From Eubacteriales bacterium (GTDB taxonomy: Bacteria; Bacillota; Clostridia; Oscillospirales; CAG-382), in NCBI GenBank assembly GCA_028702135.1, contig JAQVPJ010000009.1:5339-69338 (forward strand): a stretch of DNA of 64,000 nt. The letters run 5' to 3'. The notes beneath the pieces are model-generated. The model was not told the origin of the DNA and did no database searches. It saw only the letters and a program-made list of their open reading frames with translations. The translations under genes were made by a program, and so were the position numbers. Positions 7,883-52,496 of the stretch are shown here, piece after piece (position 1 is the stretch's first letter; every line of letters begins with the position of its first letter).

Positions 7883-7965
7883 TGGTGCGGCTAATGGGAA
7901 TTGAACCCATACGGTTGCCCACACGCCCCTCAAACGTGCGCGTCTGCCAGTTCCGCCACAGCCGC
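7883..7965 (-). tRNA. tRNA-Leu (anticodon GAG)
   Basis: Cloverleaf folded by hand. Acceptor stem is GCGGCTG/TAGCCGC. Anticodon stem CACGT/GCGTG carries loop TTGAGGG (anticodon GAG, plus-strand 7929-7931). A long variable arm, T-arm ATGGG-TTCAATT-CCCAT and an encoded CCA are present. Confidence 0.92.
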
Positions 7966-8027: not shown

Positions 8028-8055
8028 ATTATACACGGTTTTGGAATTTTGTCAA
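8028..8055 (-). promoter_or_regulatory. Sigma-A type promoter upstream of tRNA-Leu
   Basis: Minus strand reads TTGACA, 16-nt spacer, TATAAT, about 55 nt upstream of the tRNA 5' end. Confidence 0.5.
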
Positions 8056-8070
8056 TACCTTTTTTATGAT

Positions 8071-47445: not shown

Positions 47446-48078
47446 TTAACGGCGAAATTTGGCGAAGCAGGGGTTGTGCTCCCTTTCGTCCGAAAGCGTC
47501 GTTTTTCCCTCATGACCCGGGTAAACGGCATAATCCCCCGGAAGATTATACAGCATTCTCAAAGTGTTGTCCATATCCTCATCGTTCCCGTCAAACGCAG
47601 TTGTGCCGACTCCACCCTTAAAAAGAGTATCCCCGCAGAAAATAATGTCACCAAAAATATAACATACACTTCCCTTTGTATGACCGGGCGTCGGCATTAC
47701 ATAGAACTCAAAATCCTGAACTTTGTATATACCTTCCTTGTCAAAAAGGATATCCGCATTATCAAACGGACGCGGATCAAAAGGCACCATCGTTGAAAAA
47801 ACATCCCGCTCAATAAGGTAATGAGCATCATCCTTATGAATGCACACAACCGTTCTTGCCGTTTTGAGATCTCCGAGTGCAAGTATGTGGTCAAAATGCC
47901 CGTGTGTAAGCAGTATTACGCTACAAGTGGCGTTCAGCCTGAAAAGGGCGTCCTTGATTACGGTCAGATCTCCTCCCGGATCGATAACAATCGCATTACG
48001 ATCGTTTTTCTTTTTCAATATATAGCAGTTGGTATGCAGCTGCCCTACCTCAACCGTTTTAATAATATAGTCACTCAT
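47446..48078 (-). CDS. MBL-fold metallo-hydrolase (glyoxalase II-like)
   Basis: THGHFDHI motif and downstream His/Asp ligands (PGHTKGS, CGDTLF). ATG 48078 sits behind AAAGGA. Confidence 0.88.
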   Translation of the reverse strand: MSDYIIKTVEVGQLHTNCYILKKKNDRNAIVIDPGGDLTVIKDALFRLNATCSVILLTHGHFDHILALGDLKTARTVVCIHKDDAHYLIERDVFSTMVPFDPRPFDNADILFDKEGIYKVQDFEFYVMPTPGHTKGSVCYIFGDIIFCGDTLFKGGVGTTAFDGNDEDMDNTLRMLYNLPGDYAVYPGHEGKTTLSDEREHNPCFAKFRR

Positions 48079-48116
48079 GTCTTTTCCTTTCACTCATGTC
48101 TTTTCCTTTCACTCAT
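48072..48116. repeat. 2.4 tandem copies of a 19-bp unit covering the RBS and start codon of the MBL gene
   Basis: CACTCATGTCTTTTCCTTT occurs at 48072-48090 and 48091-48109, with partial copy CACTCAT at 48110-48116. Confidence 0.9.
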
Positions 48117-49090: not shown

Positions 49091-49136
49091 GCTTCCGCAC
49101 ATTTTATGCGGAATGGATAAAAGAAAAAATTCGCTA

Positions 49137-49165
49137 TTGACAAACATAAGATTAACCATTATAAT
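49137..49165 (+). promoter_or_regulatory. Consensus sigma-A promoter of the T-box-like leader
   Basis: TTGACA (49137-49142), 17-nt spacer, TATAAT (49160-49165). Confidence 0.65.
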
Positions 49166-49189
49166 GGCAAATACCAGTATATTGACAAA

Positions 49190-49447
49190 TGCACAGACGA
49201 GGACACGAGCTACATAAGAAAAGGTATCAGAGAACTGCCGTAAGGTGCGAGGCAGTAGCCATCTTTTGCATAGCTTATCACCTCCGAGCAGCAATGCCGA
49301 AATTGATTCCGTACGAATTATATTAAGCATTGACGGAACACTCCGCCGTATTAATGAGGAGAGGCGTTGATTAGACGCAGCAAATGAGTGGTTAAATGAG
49401 GAACCCTTTACAGGACTTCATCTCGTTGCAGAGGAAGTTCTTTTTTT
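49190..49447 (+). promoter_or_regulatory. T-box-like transcription-attenuation leader (candidate Ile specifier AUC)
   Basis: Folded by hand. Stem I-like element 49190-49290 has base UGC..GACGAGG / CCUCCGAGCA, AG-type bulge AUCAGAGA, and distal loop GUAAGGUGCGA. The antiterminator AAUGAG-[UGGUUAA]-AUGAGG...CUUCAU-CUCGUU spans 49383-49427. It competes with terminator GGACUUCAUCU / AGAGGAAGUUC plus U7 (49413-49447), about 10 nt before the RBS. Confidence 0.65.
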
Positions 49448-49469
49448 ATTTTTCGAAAGGAGTTTATTT

Positions 49470-51746
49470 ATGGGAAATCAAACAAAGCTGATAGCTTCAC
49501 GTCTTAAATGGGCACGTACAAACACCGATTTGTCTGTAGCGCAGATTGCAAAAGCATGTGACGTTGACGAGCAAAAATACCTTACTCTTGAGGAGGGTAA
49601 TGACGACTTCTCCTTCACATTTCTCTACAAGGCAGCTCTTGCTCTGAAAATGGATATTTCAGAGCTTGTATCGGGGGATAACCCAAAGCTCAGCTTTTTC
49701 AATGTTACCCGTGCAGGCGAGGGTATGCCGATCAAACGCAGAGAGGGCTTTAATTACCGGCACATGGCGCCCCTGTTGAAAAACAGAGCATCCGAACCCT
49801 TTATAGTAACTGCAAAATTTCAGCCCGATCAGCAGGATATGCCTATTCCGCTCTCAACACACAGAGGGCAGGAATTTGATATGGTTATCAAGGGTACGCT
49901 TAAAGTGCAGCTCGATGACCATATCATAGTGCTCAGGCAGGGAGATACCGTTTACTACGATTCCTCTCACCGCCACGGTATGATTGCCGTCGACGGCGAG
50001 GATTGTACCTTCCTTGCTGTTGTGTTCAAAGCAGAGGGAGAAACAGCGACGGATATTGAACCTATGCCGGTTGAACGCAAACCTGAAAAAGAGGGTGTAC
50101 ATGATGCTGTTTATGACGGACTTATCTACAAGCAGTACGTCACAGAAACCCTTAACGAGGACGGCACGCTCAAAACATTTGAAATGCACCCGACACCTGA
50201 CTTCAATTTTTCATACGATGTGCTTGACGCGCTTGCGGAAAAGATTCCGGATAAGCGGGCAATGCTATGGGTTTCCGCTAAAAAAGAGGAAAAATCCTTT
50301 ACATTCTCTGAAATGAAAAGGCTTACCAATCAGACCGCAAATTATTTCAAATCGCTCGGAATCGGATACGGAGACAGGGTAATGCTCGTATTAAAGCGTC
50401 ATTATCAGTTCTGGATGGCGATTTTAGCGCTTCATAAGTTAGGAGCGGTTGCTGTTCCGGCGACAAACCTTTTGTTGGAGAAAGATTATATCTACCGCTT
50501 TGATGCGGGTCAGATAAAAGCTATCGTATGCACCGCCGACGGAAACTGCGCACAAGAGGTTGACAAGGCGGCATTAAAATGCCCCTCCTTAAAAATTAAA
50601 TCACTCGTTAGAGGCTCACGCGAAGGGTGGTCGGATTTTGACGCGGAGGTTGCAAAGCAAAGCGATGTATTTGAACGGATTAAGACAAGCAAGGACGATC
50701 CTTCGATAATGTTCTTCACCTCAGGTACTACAGGATACCCCAAAATAGCGACACATACGGCAACCTATCCCATAGGGCATATAATTACCGCCCGCTGGTG
50801 GCACAAGGTAAATCCGGACGGCCTGCACCTTACCGTCGCCGATACAGGCTGGGGCAAGGCGTTGTGGGGCAAGCTTTATGGGCAATGGTTCTGCGAGAGC
50901 GCAATATTCGTATATGATATGGATAGGTTCAGCGCAGACGATCTGCTTCCGATGTTTTCAAAATATAAAATAACCACCTTCTGCGCACCGCCTACAATAT
51001 ACCGGTTTCTCATAAAGGAGGATCTGACAAAATACGATCTTTCCTCCATAGAGTACGCAACCACTGCAGGAGAGGCTCTTAATCCCGAGGTTTTCAACCG
51101 ATTCAGGGAATACACCGGGCTTACGATTATGGAGGGCTTCGGTCAGACAGAAACCACCCTCTCTATATGTAATTTAATCGGCACCACGCCCAAGATAGGC
51201 TCTATGGGACGCCCGAGTCCCGCCTATGATATGCATATACTGCGCGAGGACGGAACCGAAGCGGAGGTAGGCGAGGTCGGAGAAATTGTAGTCCGCACAA
51301 AAAAAGAGACCTGTGGACTTTTCCTCGGATATTATCTGAACGAAGAAAAAACAAAGGAGGTCTGGTATGACGGCTATTACCACACGGGCGACACCGCCTG
51401 GTTAGATGAGGACGGCTTTTACTGGTATGTAGGTAGGACAGACGATGTTATCAAATCAAGCGGATACCGCATAGGTCCGTTTGAAATCGAAAGCGTTATC
51501 ATGGAGCTCCCATATGTTCTCGAGTGTGCGGTTACGGGTATTCCCGACGAAATAAGAGGAACGATTGTAAAAGCAACCGTTGTTCTTACAAAAGGTAAAC
51601 AACCGAGCGGCGAGCTTGTCAAGGAAATACAGGATTATGTGAAGAGCAAAACTGCTCCCTATAAGTACCCCAGAAGAGTTGAATTCGCCGATTCGCTACC
51701 AAAGACGATCAGCGGTAAGATAAGACGGGTGGAATTGAAAAACTAA
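49470..51746 (+). CDS. HTH(XRE)-cupin-acyl-CoA synthetase fusion (AMP-forming, medium-chain-type)
   Basis: Residues 1-70 form an XRE HTH (LSVAQIAKACDVDEQKYLTLEEG). Residues 90-185 form a cupin (GQEFDMVIKGTLKV...GDTVYYDSSHRHG). The remainder is an adenylate-forming enzyme (FFTSGTTGYPK, GFGQTET, YHTGD, GRTDDVIKSSGYRIGPFEIES, PKTISGKIRR). Confidence 0.88.
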   Translation: MGNQTKLIASRLKWARTNTDLSVAQIAKACDVDEQKYLTLEEGNDDFSFTFLYKAALALKMDISELVSGDNPKLSFFNVTRAGEGMPIKRREGFNYRHMAPLLKNRASEPFIVTAKFQPDQQDMPIPLSTHRGQEFDMVIKGTLKVQLDDHIIVLRQGDTVYYDSSHRHGMIAVDGEDCTFLAVVFKAEGETATDIEPMPVERKPEKEGVHDAVYDGLIYKQYVTETLNEDGTLKTFEMHPTPDFNFSYDVLDALAEKIPDKRAMLWVSAKKEEKSFTFSEMKRLTNQTANYFKSLGIGYGDRVMLVLKRHYQFWMAILALHKLGAVAVPATNLLLEKDYIYRFDAGQIKAIVCTADGNCAQEVDKAALKCPSLKIKSLVRGSREGWSDFDAEVAKQSDVFERIKTSKDDPSIMFFTSGTTGYPKIATHTATYPIGHIITARWWHKVNPDGLHLTVADTGWGKALWGKLYGQWFCESAIFVYDMDRFSADDLLPMFSKYKITTFCAPPTIYRFLIKEDLTKYDLSSIEYATTAGEALNPEVFNRFREYTGLTIMEGFGQTETTLSICNLIGTTPKIGSMGRPSPAYDMHILREDGTEAEVGEVGEIVVRTKKETCGLFLGYYLNEEKTKEVWYDGYYHTGDTAWLDEDGFYWYVGRTDDVIKSSGYRIGPFEIESVIMELPYVLECAVTGIPDEIRGTIVKATVVLTKGKQPSGELVKEIQDYVKSKTAPYKYPRRVEFADSLPKTISGKIRRVELKN

Positions 51747-51776: not shown

Positions 51777-51807
51777 CGGAGAGTCGGGTTTGACTCTCCG
51801 TATTTTG
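51777..51807 (+). terminator. Intrinsic terminator
   Basis: Stem CGGAGAGTC-GGGTTT-GACTCTCCG followed by TATTTTGT. Confidence 0.75.
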
Positions 51808-51833: not shown

Positions 51834-52496
51834 TTATCTGATTGTACTGTCGGAGTTTTTTACCGTTTCGATGTATTTCTGCACGTTCTCAAGACCATAG
51901 GCTTCTCCCGCTCTTCTTCCCCTATAAGAACAATAGATAAAAGCAGCTGTAATCAGTAAGGAGTATACGATAATGAACGCAGCTAATTTATCATTGATCC
52001 CCGTTATTACAAAGTTGTTTACCCTTATGTCGTCTTGGGCAATTTCTTTCAAAACATTGTGCTTGTTTACCACACCGAAAACCGAGGCAGTCAGCGCTGA
52101 CGGATACCAAAACTGCGATGCAAATATCCCGCAGAAATGAGTGCCGGTTCCCATATACATATTTATTATATAAATGATTGTTCCGCTTAGAACTGTCTGT
52201 GTTTTAACTTTTTTTTCGGGCTGTACTATCCTCGCCTTGTAAGCAATCTTATAGCCCGCAATATAGCTTGTCAAATACCCTGCTATAATAAACGATATTA
52301 TTGTTACGGCTCCCATTGCAGGATAAACCACATTGAACAAGTACGAGGCATCTGCATGAAGCTCGACGATAGTCGGTGTTTTTATAAAAAAAGAAACTAT
52401 TAACCGAGTGAAAAATGGTAAAATGGATGCAATAAACATTGATAAGGTAAAAATTACGATACCGAAGAAAAAACCGTCATACTTTTTTTCATACAT
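51834..52496 (-). CDS. Polytopic membrane protein, unknown function
   Basis: 220-aa ORF with about five hydrophobic helices. No family recognised. Confidence 0.55.
   Translation of the reverse strand: MYEKKYDGFFFGIVIFTLSMFIASILPFFTRLIVSFFIKTPTIVELHADASYLFNVVYPAMGAVTIISFIIAGYLTSYIAGYKIAYKARIVQPEKKVKTQTVLSGTIIYIINMYMGTGTHFCGIFASQFWYPSALTASVFGVVNKHNVLKEIAQDDIRVNNFVITGINDKLAAFIIVYSLLITAAFIYCSYRGRRAGEAYGLENVQKYIETVKNSDSTIR

Follow-up and report, generated by a model that had tools for sequence, protein, structure and literature searches.

An isoleucine-type T-box leader upstream of a fused cupin–acyl-CoA ligase gene points to isoleucine salvage from a branched-chain acid

The locus: a fusion gene behind a structured leader

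The window analysed here is a 64,000-nucleotide stretch of DNA from a Eubacteriales bacterium (GenBank assembly GCA_028702135.1, contig JAQVPJ010000009.1, positions 5,339 to 69,338; all coordinates below are window positions). In the ORF map of the window a single unbroken open reading frame (ORF) on the forward strand encodes a protein of 758 residues, in which a helical domain resembling the helix-turn-helix (HTH) of XRE regulators is followed by a cupin, a flexible linker and a complete AMP-forming acyl-CoA synthetase (Table 1). Upstream lie an A-rich tract, a sigma-A type promoter that matches the consensus throughout both hexamers, and a leader RNA that we assign to the T-box riboswitches. 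The fusion gene is monocistronic in the window, because a GC-rich hairpin and a convergent gene on the opposite strand (51834..52496(-)) lie 3′ of it. A preliminary description, made from the sequence alone, had already called a promoter and an RNA leader ahead of the gene; both are confirmed, the promoter being a strong one and the leader of the T-box type. The same description had proposed that the protein represses its own gene in the manner of BirA, through two copies of a 10-mer around the promoter, and this proposal is taken up once the protein itself has been described.

Table 1. Features of the fusion gene, its promoter and its leader.
Feature	Position	Strand	Basis
First copy of TATTGACAAA (-35 hexamer with its usual flanks)	49135..49144	+	exact match
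Sigma-A type promoter (TTGACA 49137-49142, 17-nt spacer, TATAAT 49160-49165)	49137..49165	+	12/12 consensus positions
Second copy of TATTGACAAA (~+8 to +17 of the transcript, overlapping the 5′ edge of the T-box leader)	49180..49189	+	exact match
T-box leader including terminator	49185..49447	+	Rfam match 49185-49428
Stem I kink turn and helix strand, AGAC-GAGG	49195-49202	+	sequence, cmscan
AG bulge, AGAGA	49229-49233	+	sequence, cmscan
Predicted specifier codon AUC (Ile; 49277-49279) and conserved purine A (49280)	49277..49280	+	ortholog register
3′ helix strand, CCUC	49281-49284	+	sequence, cmscan
T-box sequence and 5′ half of the antiterminator	49383..49411	+	cmscan model positions 184-219; kept in the four closest loci
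Intrinsic terminator (hairpin 49412-49441, then seven U)	49412..49447	+	predicted fold; U run read directly
Ribosome-binding site AAAGGAG, 7 nt ahead of the ATG	49456..49462	+	read from sequence
Coding sequence of the 758-residue fusion protein	49470..51746	+	ORF map, Pfam, homologs, species loci
Five-helix XRE-like (HTH-like) domain, residues 1-69, acidic	49470..49676	+	weak Pfam match, AlphaFold, net-charge analysis
Cupin barrel, residues 75-190	49692..50039	+	Cupin_2, invariant columns, HppE alignment, Foldseek
Variable linker, residues 191-235	50040..50174	+	length and sequence vary across the homolog alignment
Catalytic domains of medium/short-chain acyl-CoA synthetase, residues 256-750	50235..51719	+	Pfam, 3ETC, NCBIfam
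Predicted acyl-pocket position G462	50853-50855	+	Gly in Ile-type, Ala in Val-type paralogs
GC-rich hairpin between the fusion gene and the convergent gene	51777..51800	.	terminator-like site called on the minus strand

The leader is predicted to be an isoleucine-specific T-box

A whole-window Rfam scan at the gathering threshold reported no T-box, and the leader surfaced when cmscan was run in E-value mode, where it matched RF00230 at 57.3 bits (E 7e-11) over all 219 model positions. The hallmarks of the class can each be located in the window leader: a kink turn (K-turn) in Stem I, formed by the strands AGAC-GAGG / CCUC-CGAGC; an AG bulge; a codon and a purine set against the Stem I helix, here AUC and an A directly 5′ of the strand CCUC; a UGGN bulge; and an antiterminator and a terminator that exclude one another. 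The bulge reads UGGU (49389-49392) within the T-box sequence GAGUGGUUAAAUGAGG and would pair with the ACCA end of an uncharged tRNA, and read-through on the uncharged cognate tRNA is predicted for this leader.

Orthologous loci support the assignment and fix the register of the specifier. A signature search detected the same leader upstream of the fusion gene in 64 of 80 species loci, and Rfam confirmed a T-box in every locus submitted from the T-box-bearing lineages (L081, L082, L084, L086, L088, L010, L021 and L063), with orthologous leaders scoring up to 93-122 bits against RF00230 and several of them passing the gathering score. The regex parser used to extract T-boxes gives some false calls (GAA, TCT and others), and the evidence used here is the strictly parsed set together with the Rfam-confirmed loci. 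Among the 54 strictly parsed orthologous leaders the 4-bp Stem I helix covaries (GAAG/CTTC in 38, GGAG/CTCC in 6, GAGG/CCTC in 4, AGGG/CCCT in 2 and AGAG/CTCT in 1), and the codon at the specifier position is AUC in 32, GUA in 17 and GUC in 2, in a register that agrees with the Rfam alignments of L010 and L063. Three other specifiers suggested by the gapped cmscan alignment of the window leader, GCU (Ala) and CUU or UUA (Leu), were ruled out by anchoring the codon to the helix and by the AUC and GUA codons of the orthologs. Read in this register, the window leader is predicted to be an isoleucine-specific T-box.

The fusion is genuine and widespread

The preliminary description had placed an XRE domain, a cupin and a full acyl-CoA synthetase in one 758-residue protein, and the survey of homologs bears this out. 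In Pfam the protein matches AMP-binding at residues 256-622 (E 2e-60), AMP-binding_C at 672-750 (E 5e-22) and Cupin_2 at 126-185 (E 4e-11). Nearly all of the 120 best database homologs are ~750-800 residues long, the exceptions being a 520-residue annotation (P0013), which represents the same sequence as the window protein, and one protein of 845 residues; AMP-binding domains were found in all 120, and the cupin in all except P0013. The full-length fusion is encoded in 80 species-representative genomes, and hence in at least 80 species, from Oscillospiraceae, Acutalibacteraceae, Ruminococcus, Christensenellaceae and two Lentisphaerae. A frameshift or assembly error that had joined two separate genes was named at the outset as one way in which the proposal might fail; the exact 758-residue product is present on five contigs from independent sources. 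The fusion is a genuine and widespread protein and no assembly artefact.

Public records of metagenome-assembled genomes (MAGs) present the gene differently. In one pair of records it is split into a 168-residue 'XRE family transcriptional regulator, partial' (HBR32064.1) and a 588-residue 'acetyl-CoA synthetase' (HBR32063.1), and MDD4164594.1 is a 520-residue annotation of the window gene that starts at Met239. Automated annotation thus hides the fusion in some assemblies, by splitting it or by shortening it at the N-terminus.

The ligase half and its isoleucine- and valine-type paralogs

The catalytic part of the protein belongs to the ANL enzymes: the core motifs SGTTGYPK, YHTGD, GRTDD and PKTISGKIRR are all visible and are invariant in the homolog alignment, the A10 catalytic lysine included. 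Residues 232-757 match PDB entry 3ETC, the medium-chain acyl-CoA synthetase MacsMa of Methanosarcina acetivorans, with an E-value of 3e-199, and the preferred substrate of MacsMa is 2-methylbutyrate (PMC10455477). The best NCBIfam family is MbcS (methylbutyryl-CoA synthetase, NF047394), which scores 460 bits over residues 258-757, under the equivalog cut-off of 850; from this shortfall we take the fusion ligase to be a member of a family related to MbcS and not an ortholog. MbcS of Staphylococcus aureus activates both 2-methylbutyrate and isobutyrate (PMC10026030).

At ~20 loci two fusion genes stand in tandem, the first preceded by an AUC (Ile) T-box and the second by a GUA (Val) one. The Val-type gene is followed by a P-loop ATPase and then by a 2-oxoacid:ferredoxin oxidoreductase encoded as delta, alpha, beta and gamma subunits, whose alpha subunit matches NF005507 'VorB' at 548 bits, above the cut-off of 399; by sequence the operon is of the 2-ketoisovalerate:ferredoxin oxidoreductase (VOR) type. 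One such arrangement, T-box(Ile)-fusion, T-box(Val)-fusion, ATPase and VOR genes, can be seen at L010:830-9539, and others at L021, L063 and ~17 further loci. The P-loop ATPase of these loci is CbiA/ParA-like and the delta subunit is a protein of 68 residues with 2x[4Fe-4S]; the conserved P-loop protein, standing between ligase and VOR, may serve Fe-S maturation. A different set of neighbours occurs at L081:7301-12258, the locus of an 86%-identical relative, where genes for an LPG_synthase_C protein, for a sodium:solute symporter and for an IorA/IorB-like 2-oxoacid:ferredoxin oxidoreductase come after the ligase gene, all on its strand. The symporter and the IorA/IorB-like enzyme may represent an alternative transporter and carboxylation partner, and they have no counterpart in the window.

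The Val-type proteins make up a single block when the sequences are ordered by neighbour joining, and the window protein has its place with the Ile-type. When 44 Ile-type proteins were compared with 17 Val-type proteins at strict thresholds, only two positions separated them, K54R and G462A, the latter within the motif D-T-G-W-(G/A)-K. By alignment to the TADVGWVTGH motif of acetyl-CoA synthetase, we take position 462 to correspond to an acyl-pocket residue of that enzyme, Val310 in S. enterica and Ile312 in M. thermautotrophicus. A glycine at this position would fit a C5 acid and an alanine a C4 acid. Taken together, the Ile specifier, the homology to MacsMa and the G462/A462 difference point to a preference of the window ligase for 2-methylbutyrate.

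The likeness to MbcS raises the alternative that the main task of the ligase is to prime the synthesis of anteiso and iso fatty acids of the membrane with branched-chain acyl-CoA, the task of MbcS in S. aureus; MbcS is the best NCBIfam family, and 2-methylbutyryl-CoA is the anteiso primer. We regard this as improbable for the main function, since control by the charging of tRNA-Ile and tRNA-Val points to amino-acid supply, the Val-type copy is co-transcribed with a VOR-type oxidoreductase, and the score falls short of the MbcS equivalog cut-off (460 vs 850 bits). The primer and amino-acid roles are not mutually exclusive.

An N-terminal module related to HppE

The N-terminal part had been described as a complete XRE-type HTH. 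Its fold agrees with that description: the AlphaFold model of residues 1-201 (pLDDT 87.5, on the predicted local distance difference test) shows a five-helix XRE-like domain, with helices at residues 3-17, 23-29, 34-41, 49-58 and 63-68, and a profile of the module matches XRE domains in the PDB, among them those of the 434 repressor, SinR and a PbsX-family protein. The HTH signature itself is weak, the Pfam matches (HTH_19/HTH_31, E ~1e-3) lying under the curated cut-offs, and precomputed HTH_3/HTH_19 matches are present on many homologs. After the cupin, residues ~189-210 are predicted to be disordered (pLDDT ~35), and the N-terminal extension of the ligase begins after this stretch.

The whole module, helical domain and cupin together, resembles the fosfomycin epoxidase HppE (hydroxypropylphosphonate epoxidase), an enzyme with non-heme iron. 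Foldseek returned HppE (E 2e-14), 1Y9Q, Psf4, HEPD and MPnS as top matches, and the module profile aligns over residues 8-178 to residues 11-189 of HppE (E 5e-5). The cupin carries a 2-His-1-Glu triad, H131 (49860-49862), E135 (49872-49874) and H169 (49974-49976), in register with H138, E142 and H180 of HppE. These three residues are invariant in two alignments of 27 and 43 sequences, and R90/R91 and Y96 are invariant as well. The module therefore has both features that define the HppE type, the two-domain fold and the triad. To our knowledge, HppE-type enzymes do not bind DNA.

The module travels with the ligase, either fused to it or encoded by an adjacent gene, across three phyla. Its closest relatives are stand-alone proteins of 183-196 residues, 50-57% identical in Bacillota, and in five of six informative contexts the stand-alone gene lies directly upstream of a ~550-residue ligase gene with a gap of 0-40 nt (a further stand-alone homolog, P0289, is on a 638-bp contig that offers no gene context and falls outside this set). 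Split pairs in Bacillota are preceded by an Ile T-box; a split pair was also found on a Prolixibacteraceae (Bacteroidota) contig (L093) and on one unassigned contig (L091), where a T-box was not searched for. Hydrogenoanaerobacterium saccharovorans is among the carriers of a split pair. Fused copies that have no T-box occur in Lentisphaerae/Victivallaceae MAGs (L007, L080) and in one Ruminococcus clade. Since module and ligase are paired or fused even where the T-box is missing, it is the ligase, and not the T-box, that the module accompanies, and the occurrence of the pair outside Bacillota suggests that it has spread horizontally as a unit. The pairing is not universal, as a stand-alone Christensenellales homolog (L092:4001-4552, 183 residues, profile E 3e-42) adjoins no ligase gene. 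A profile search of the full library with the module returned 211 clusters at E <=1e-30 and 1567 at E <=1e-10.

In the T-box-less Ruminococcus clade (L028:1660-1795, L062:1545-1760, L039:3870-3995, L034:3830-3998 and L061:3845-3998) a conserved TTATGTAAGCAC box stands 8-18 nt past the -10 of a consensus promoter, and the ribosome-site context GAAAGGAGnAGGCTTGCTATG is conserved as well; in L039 a terminator-like hairpin (CAGGCGGTCTCCGCCTTTTTT) comes after the box. The TTATGTAAGCAC region is a putative leader or operator that takes the place of the T-box in this clade.

Does the module bind DNA?

Of the properties expected of an XRE transcription factor, the module has the five-helix fold but neither a basic or polar recognition helix nor a net-positive domain, and no conserved operator was found in ~60 orthologous promoters. 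Helix 3 reads DVDEQKYLTLEEGNDDFS in the window protein and xxEEYxxxExGxxDFS in the family consensus, with conserved Glu residues where XRE repressors place the residues that contact DNA. The net charge of the helical domain averages -4.4 in 27 fused proteins and -6.4 in 43 mainly stand-alone proteins, and lies between -3 and -8 in lineages that have no T-box.

A genuine XRE-cupin transcription factor, a trigger enzyme acting at other sites such as the VOR or ilv genes or at its own promoter in T-box-less lineages, must nonetheless be weighed, and a number of observations tell in favour of such a regulator or against a role away from DNA. The best PDB profile match of the module is 1Y9Q (E 2e-8), an uncharacterised protein annotated as 'HTH_3 regulator'; genuine XRE-cupin transcription factors exist, PuuR being an established example, and operons commonly begin with the gene of a regulator. 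With a net charge of -2, the helical domain of the window protein is just mildly acidic. The module is retained in lineages that have no T-box (L007, L080, L028, L039, L061 and L062; it is kept also in L093 of the Bacteroidota, where a T-box was not searched for), and these could use it for regulation, the conserved TTATGTAAGCAC box of one such clade lying just 3′ of the -10. The full-length AlphaFold model, with a predicted template modelling score (pTM) of 0.63 and a linker pLDDT of ~35, does not dock the module on the enzyme with confidence. Finally, the comparison of Ile- and Val-type proteins gave no strict positions in the cupin, and it is therefore improbable that the cupin recognises the acid or amino acid specific to each pathway. 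Set against the transcription factor are the helical domain, equally acidic where the T-box is absent, and the helix 3 positions that contact bases in repressors of the 434/SinR type, which here are Val/Pro, Glu or variable. A 1:1 stoichiometry with an abundant metabolic enzyme would also be unusual for a repressor, and the TTATGTAAGCAC box has neither dyad nor direct-repeat symmetry. On balance we think such a factor unlikely.

The likeness to HppE raises another possibility, that the module is a second catalytic domain, an HppE-like mononuclear-metal enzyme acting on the acid, the acyl-adenylate or the acyl-CoA within a bifunctional protein; epimerisation, hydrolytic proofreading and decarboxylation are possible reactions. 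The end-to-end alignment with HppE would be explained in this way, with the triad in register, R91 corresponding to HppE R97 and Y96 to the HppE Tyr cluster, as would the enzymes of the same architecture among the top Foldseek matches (HppE, Psf4, HEPD and MPnS) and the 1:1 stoichiometry suggested by fusion and tight gene pairing. We nevertheless judge a second active site of this kind decidedly unlikely. Identity to HppE is only ~18-21%, the established salvage route needs no extra chemical step, and the HppE family uses O2 or H2O2, which is implausible in strict anaerobes. Moreover, isobutyrate, the Val-type substrate, is achiral, and an epimerase role therefore cannot be general.

The sequence evidence leans against DNA binding by the module; a capacity to bind a metal and a small ligand, or a part in assembly, is more likely than repression of its own gene through DNA. 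Of the claims made here this is the weakest, and we hold a non-DNA-binding partner or sensor role only tentatively, at somewhat less than even odds. The idea of metabolite sensing in the preliminary description may still hold if it is moved to the protein, where a ligand site in the cupin would act on the enzyme itself.

The 10-mer repeats around the promoter

The two exact copies of TATTGACAAA lie where the preliminary description had put them, the first overlapping the -35 hexamer, and it had read them as operator half-sites. Within the window TATTGACAAA occurs five times, and three of the copies (8048-, 37422- and 49135+) are the -35 boxes of consensus promoters, from which we conclude that TATTGACAAA is the extended -35 consensus of this genome. 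One of these promoters stands upstream of a tRNA gene (7886-7965, minus strand), its -35 being the exact copy at 8048-8057. No -10 stands at the right spacing (16-18 nt) behind the downstream copy, and its TTGACA (49182-49187) was ruled out as a second promoter on that ground. Pairs of this kind are not rare: the window holds ~10 independent exact direct repeats of >=10 nt within 60 nt, compared with ~4 expected from first-order Markov simulations, and with such an expectation one pair near one promoter is unremarkable. Elsewhere in the window, a 19-nt unit (TCACTCATGTCTTTTCCTT) is duplicated exactly and in tandem at 48071-48107, at the 5′ end and start-codon region of a metallo-beta-lactamase-fold gene (47446..48093(-)).

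Conservation was checked in the three closest relatives whose loci could be retrieved, at 86, 80 and 78% protein identity. CTATTGACAAA is invariant in the four closest loci, the upstream copy of TATTGACAAA being kept because it is the -35 element. In the three relatives the place of the downstream copy reads ATTCACAAA, ATGAATAAA and ATTTATAAA, and what is conserved after it is only AAATGCA(C/T)AGACGAGGACA, the start of the RNA leader. The downstream copy is probably a chance look-alike. Over a wider range, ~60 orthologous promoters share the A-tract, (C/T)(A/T)TTGACAA and TGnTAtAAT, and no element beyond this core promoter, neither a repeat nor a palindrome, is common to them; in many of these loci the -10 and Stem I stand just 15-20 nt apart, too close for an operator to fit between them. 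Lack of conservation upstream of orthologs had been named beforehand as a result that would count against the half-sites, and it is the result obtained.

Two further operator candidates were considered and rejected. The 'ATTGAAT' / 'AATTTGAATATCACAAA' motif at the 5′ end of the leader occurs in only a subset of related loci and is gone where the distance from -10 to Stem I is 15-20 nt, and it is therefore not a family-wide operator. A perfect 12-bp palindrome, CCATTATAATGG, centred on the -10 hexamer (49151-49172) is not kept in the closest relatives.

These results bear most directly on the BirA-like model, in which the HTH would bind the two TATTGACAAA half-sites with an acyl-adenylate or short-chain acid as corepressor. 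Its architectural premise is real, as an HTH-like domain, a ligand-type cupin and an adenylating enzyme do share one protein, and two exact 10-mers do flank the promoter. In P. aeruginosa, moreover, one acyl-CoA ligase is reported to be a non-canonical transcriptional regulator (PMC12754631). Against the model, the first 10-mer is a -35 box and the second is lost in relatives of 78-86% identity, ~60 orthologous promoters share no repeat or palindrome and often lack the room for one, and ~4 such repeats per window arise by chance. On the protein side, the helical domain is acidic with conserved Glu in helix 3, and the module is HppE-like with an identical triad; a dedicated T-box switch is, besides, already present. 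BirA, furthermore, differs in both its enzyme fold and its DNA-binding fold. We consider the BirA-like model very improbable.

A proposed role in isoleucine salvage

The interpretation that we favour, with a probability of about 0.6, is that the gene encodes a tRNA-Ile-gated 2-methylbutyrate-CoA ligase for isoleucine salvage, joined to a putative metal-cupin partner module; for the T-box and the ligase role taken by themselves our confidence is high. The locus would be a single-gene transcription unit for a branched-chain short-acid:CoA ligase, gated by an Ile T-box riboswitch. A strong, apparently constitutive promoter would fire into the ~270-nt leader. With tRNA-Ile charged, the terminator (49412-49447) would halt transcription; with tRNA-Ile uncharged, its anticodon would pair with the AUC specifier (49277-49279) and its free ACCA end with the UGGU bulge (49389-49392), which would stabilise the antiterminator and allow read-through. 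The ligase would then activate 2-methylbutyrate, an acid that fermentation makes plentiful in rumen and gut, to 2-methylbutyryl-CoA, and its Val-type paralog would activate isobutyrate. A VOR-type 2-oxoacid:ferredoxin oxidoreductase would reductively carboxylate 2-methylbutyryl-CoA to the keto acid of isoleucine, and transamination would yield isoleucine (valine for the paralog), a salvage from branched-chain volatile fatty acid. In this way a gut or rumen Clostridium would most likely obtain isoleucine. Reductive carboxylation of this kind is the classical assimilation route for these acids in rumen anaerobes. The HppE-type module would bind a metal and a small anionic ligand and organise or modulate the ligase, probably without binding DNA. 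Substrate, pathway, direction of flux and the role of the N-terminal module are in this scheme what we infer.

Several observations weigh against this interpretation. The window T-box is a divergent copy that scores under the Rfam gathering score (57.3 vs 93 bits), and cmscan's own alignment gives its specifier loop a 3-nt insertion, the AUC call resting on ortholog comparison. Substrate preference is read from homology at ~60% identity and one pocket residue. No VOR, ilvE or transporter gene adjoins the fusion gene in the window, the pathway context coming from other genomes, and no leucine-type copy was seen.

Beyond a partner role, the HppE-like metal-cupin might gate the ANL adenylating enzyme directly, either by sensing a small molecule as an integral part of the protein or as a second active site; we hold this to be less likely than not. 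If it held, acid assimilation would be under two-tier control, by tRNA charging through the T-box and by a metabolite or metal signal on the protein, and in T-box-less lineages the module would be the only dedicated regulator. It would further define a new class of regulated acyl-CoA ligase and tie to a gene the long-recognised dependence of Clostridia in rumen and gut on branched-chain acids.

Since the 1960s it has been recognised that ruminococci which degrade cellulose, and many Clostridia of the gut, depend on isobutyrate, 2-methylbutyrate or isovalerate and convert these acids to valine, isoleucine and leucine by reductive carboxylation. In the literature that we searched, the enzyme that activates these acids, and its regulation, were not found described. 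The specifier of a T-box names an amino acid and is thereby an unusually direct functional label: it splits the ligase family into Ile and Val types and links it to the VOR operon. Substrate specificity (the G462/A462 switch), pathway direction and the auxotrophy or salvage status of hundreds of uncultured species become testable with this label. The conservation of a metal-cupin module on an ANL enzyme across three phyla poses a mechanistic problem, and may bear on the use of branched-chain volatile fatty acids as feed additives in ruminants.

Comparison with known systems

Each of the three components, T-box, ANL ligase and XRE-cupin layout, belongs to a kind already known. BirA shares with the fusion the concept of an adenylate-forming enzyme joined to an N-terminal helical domain of the DNA-binding type. 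It differs in having the biotin protein ligase fold where the fusion has ANL catalytic domains, a winged helix where the fusion has an XRE-like domain, and a palindromic operator where none was found here; the fusion accordingly lacks what characterises a ligase/repressor of the BirA type. XRE-cupin regulators (1Y9Q of Vibrio cholerae; PuuR-type) have the same domain order, 1Y9Q with a TM-score of 0.65-0.72. The HTH of 1Y9Q, however, is net +2 with a polar helix 3 (VSKAMLGQIERG), whereas the fusion family is net -2 to -10, has helix 3 as xxEEYxxxExG and yielded no operator. HppE, Psf4, HEPD and MPnS combine a helical HTH-like domain with a cupin whose triad is in register, and the helical domain of HppE is likewise acidic (net -4). 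HppE, with which the module shares only 18-21% identity, works by itself as an oxidative enzyme when aerobes make phosphonate antibiotics, and the same chemistry is not suggested here.

On the catalytic side, residues 232-757 align over the full length of MacsMa (3ETC), whose preference for 2-methylbutyrate matches the Ile T-box found here; MacsMa is archaeal, has neither HTH-cupin module nor T-box, and no amino-acid sensor is linked to its role in the cell. MbcS of S. aureus, the best-scoring curated family, activates 2-methylbutyrate and isobutyrate, but supplies the making of branched-chain fatty acids and lacks the N-terminal module. We know of no T-box on MbcS.

The survey of T-box targets by Wels (2008) has no CoA or cupin entry among them (PMC2494555). 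Our literature searches returned no acid-CoA ligase as a T-box target, no Ile/Val ligase paralogs and no HppE-like module on an ANL enzyme, an earlier mention in the comparative T-box work of Vitreschak (2008) being possible. Three things appear to be new: an acid-CoA ligase, elsewhere together with VOR, under T-box control; paralogs of the ligase for Ile and Val, each matched to its specifier; and an HppE-like companion module on an ANL enzyme. The leader itself resembles those of ileS, valS and ilv genes (RF00230) in its Stem I K-turn, specifier loop, AG bulge, UGGN bulge and competing terminator and antiterminator, and the AUC and GUA specifiers of the ligase family fit the same Ile/Val logic. 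It differs from them in being a divergent copy (57 bits in the window) and in the gene that it would control, an acyl-CoA ligase, joined elsewhere by a ferredoxin oxidoreductase, by which the T-box regulon would be extended to a new class of targets, the acid-CoA ligases.

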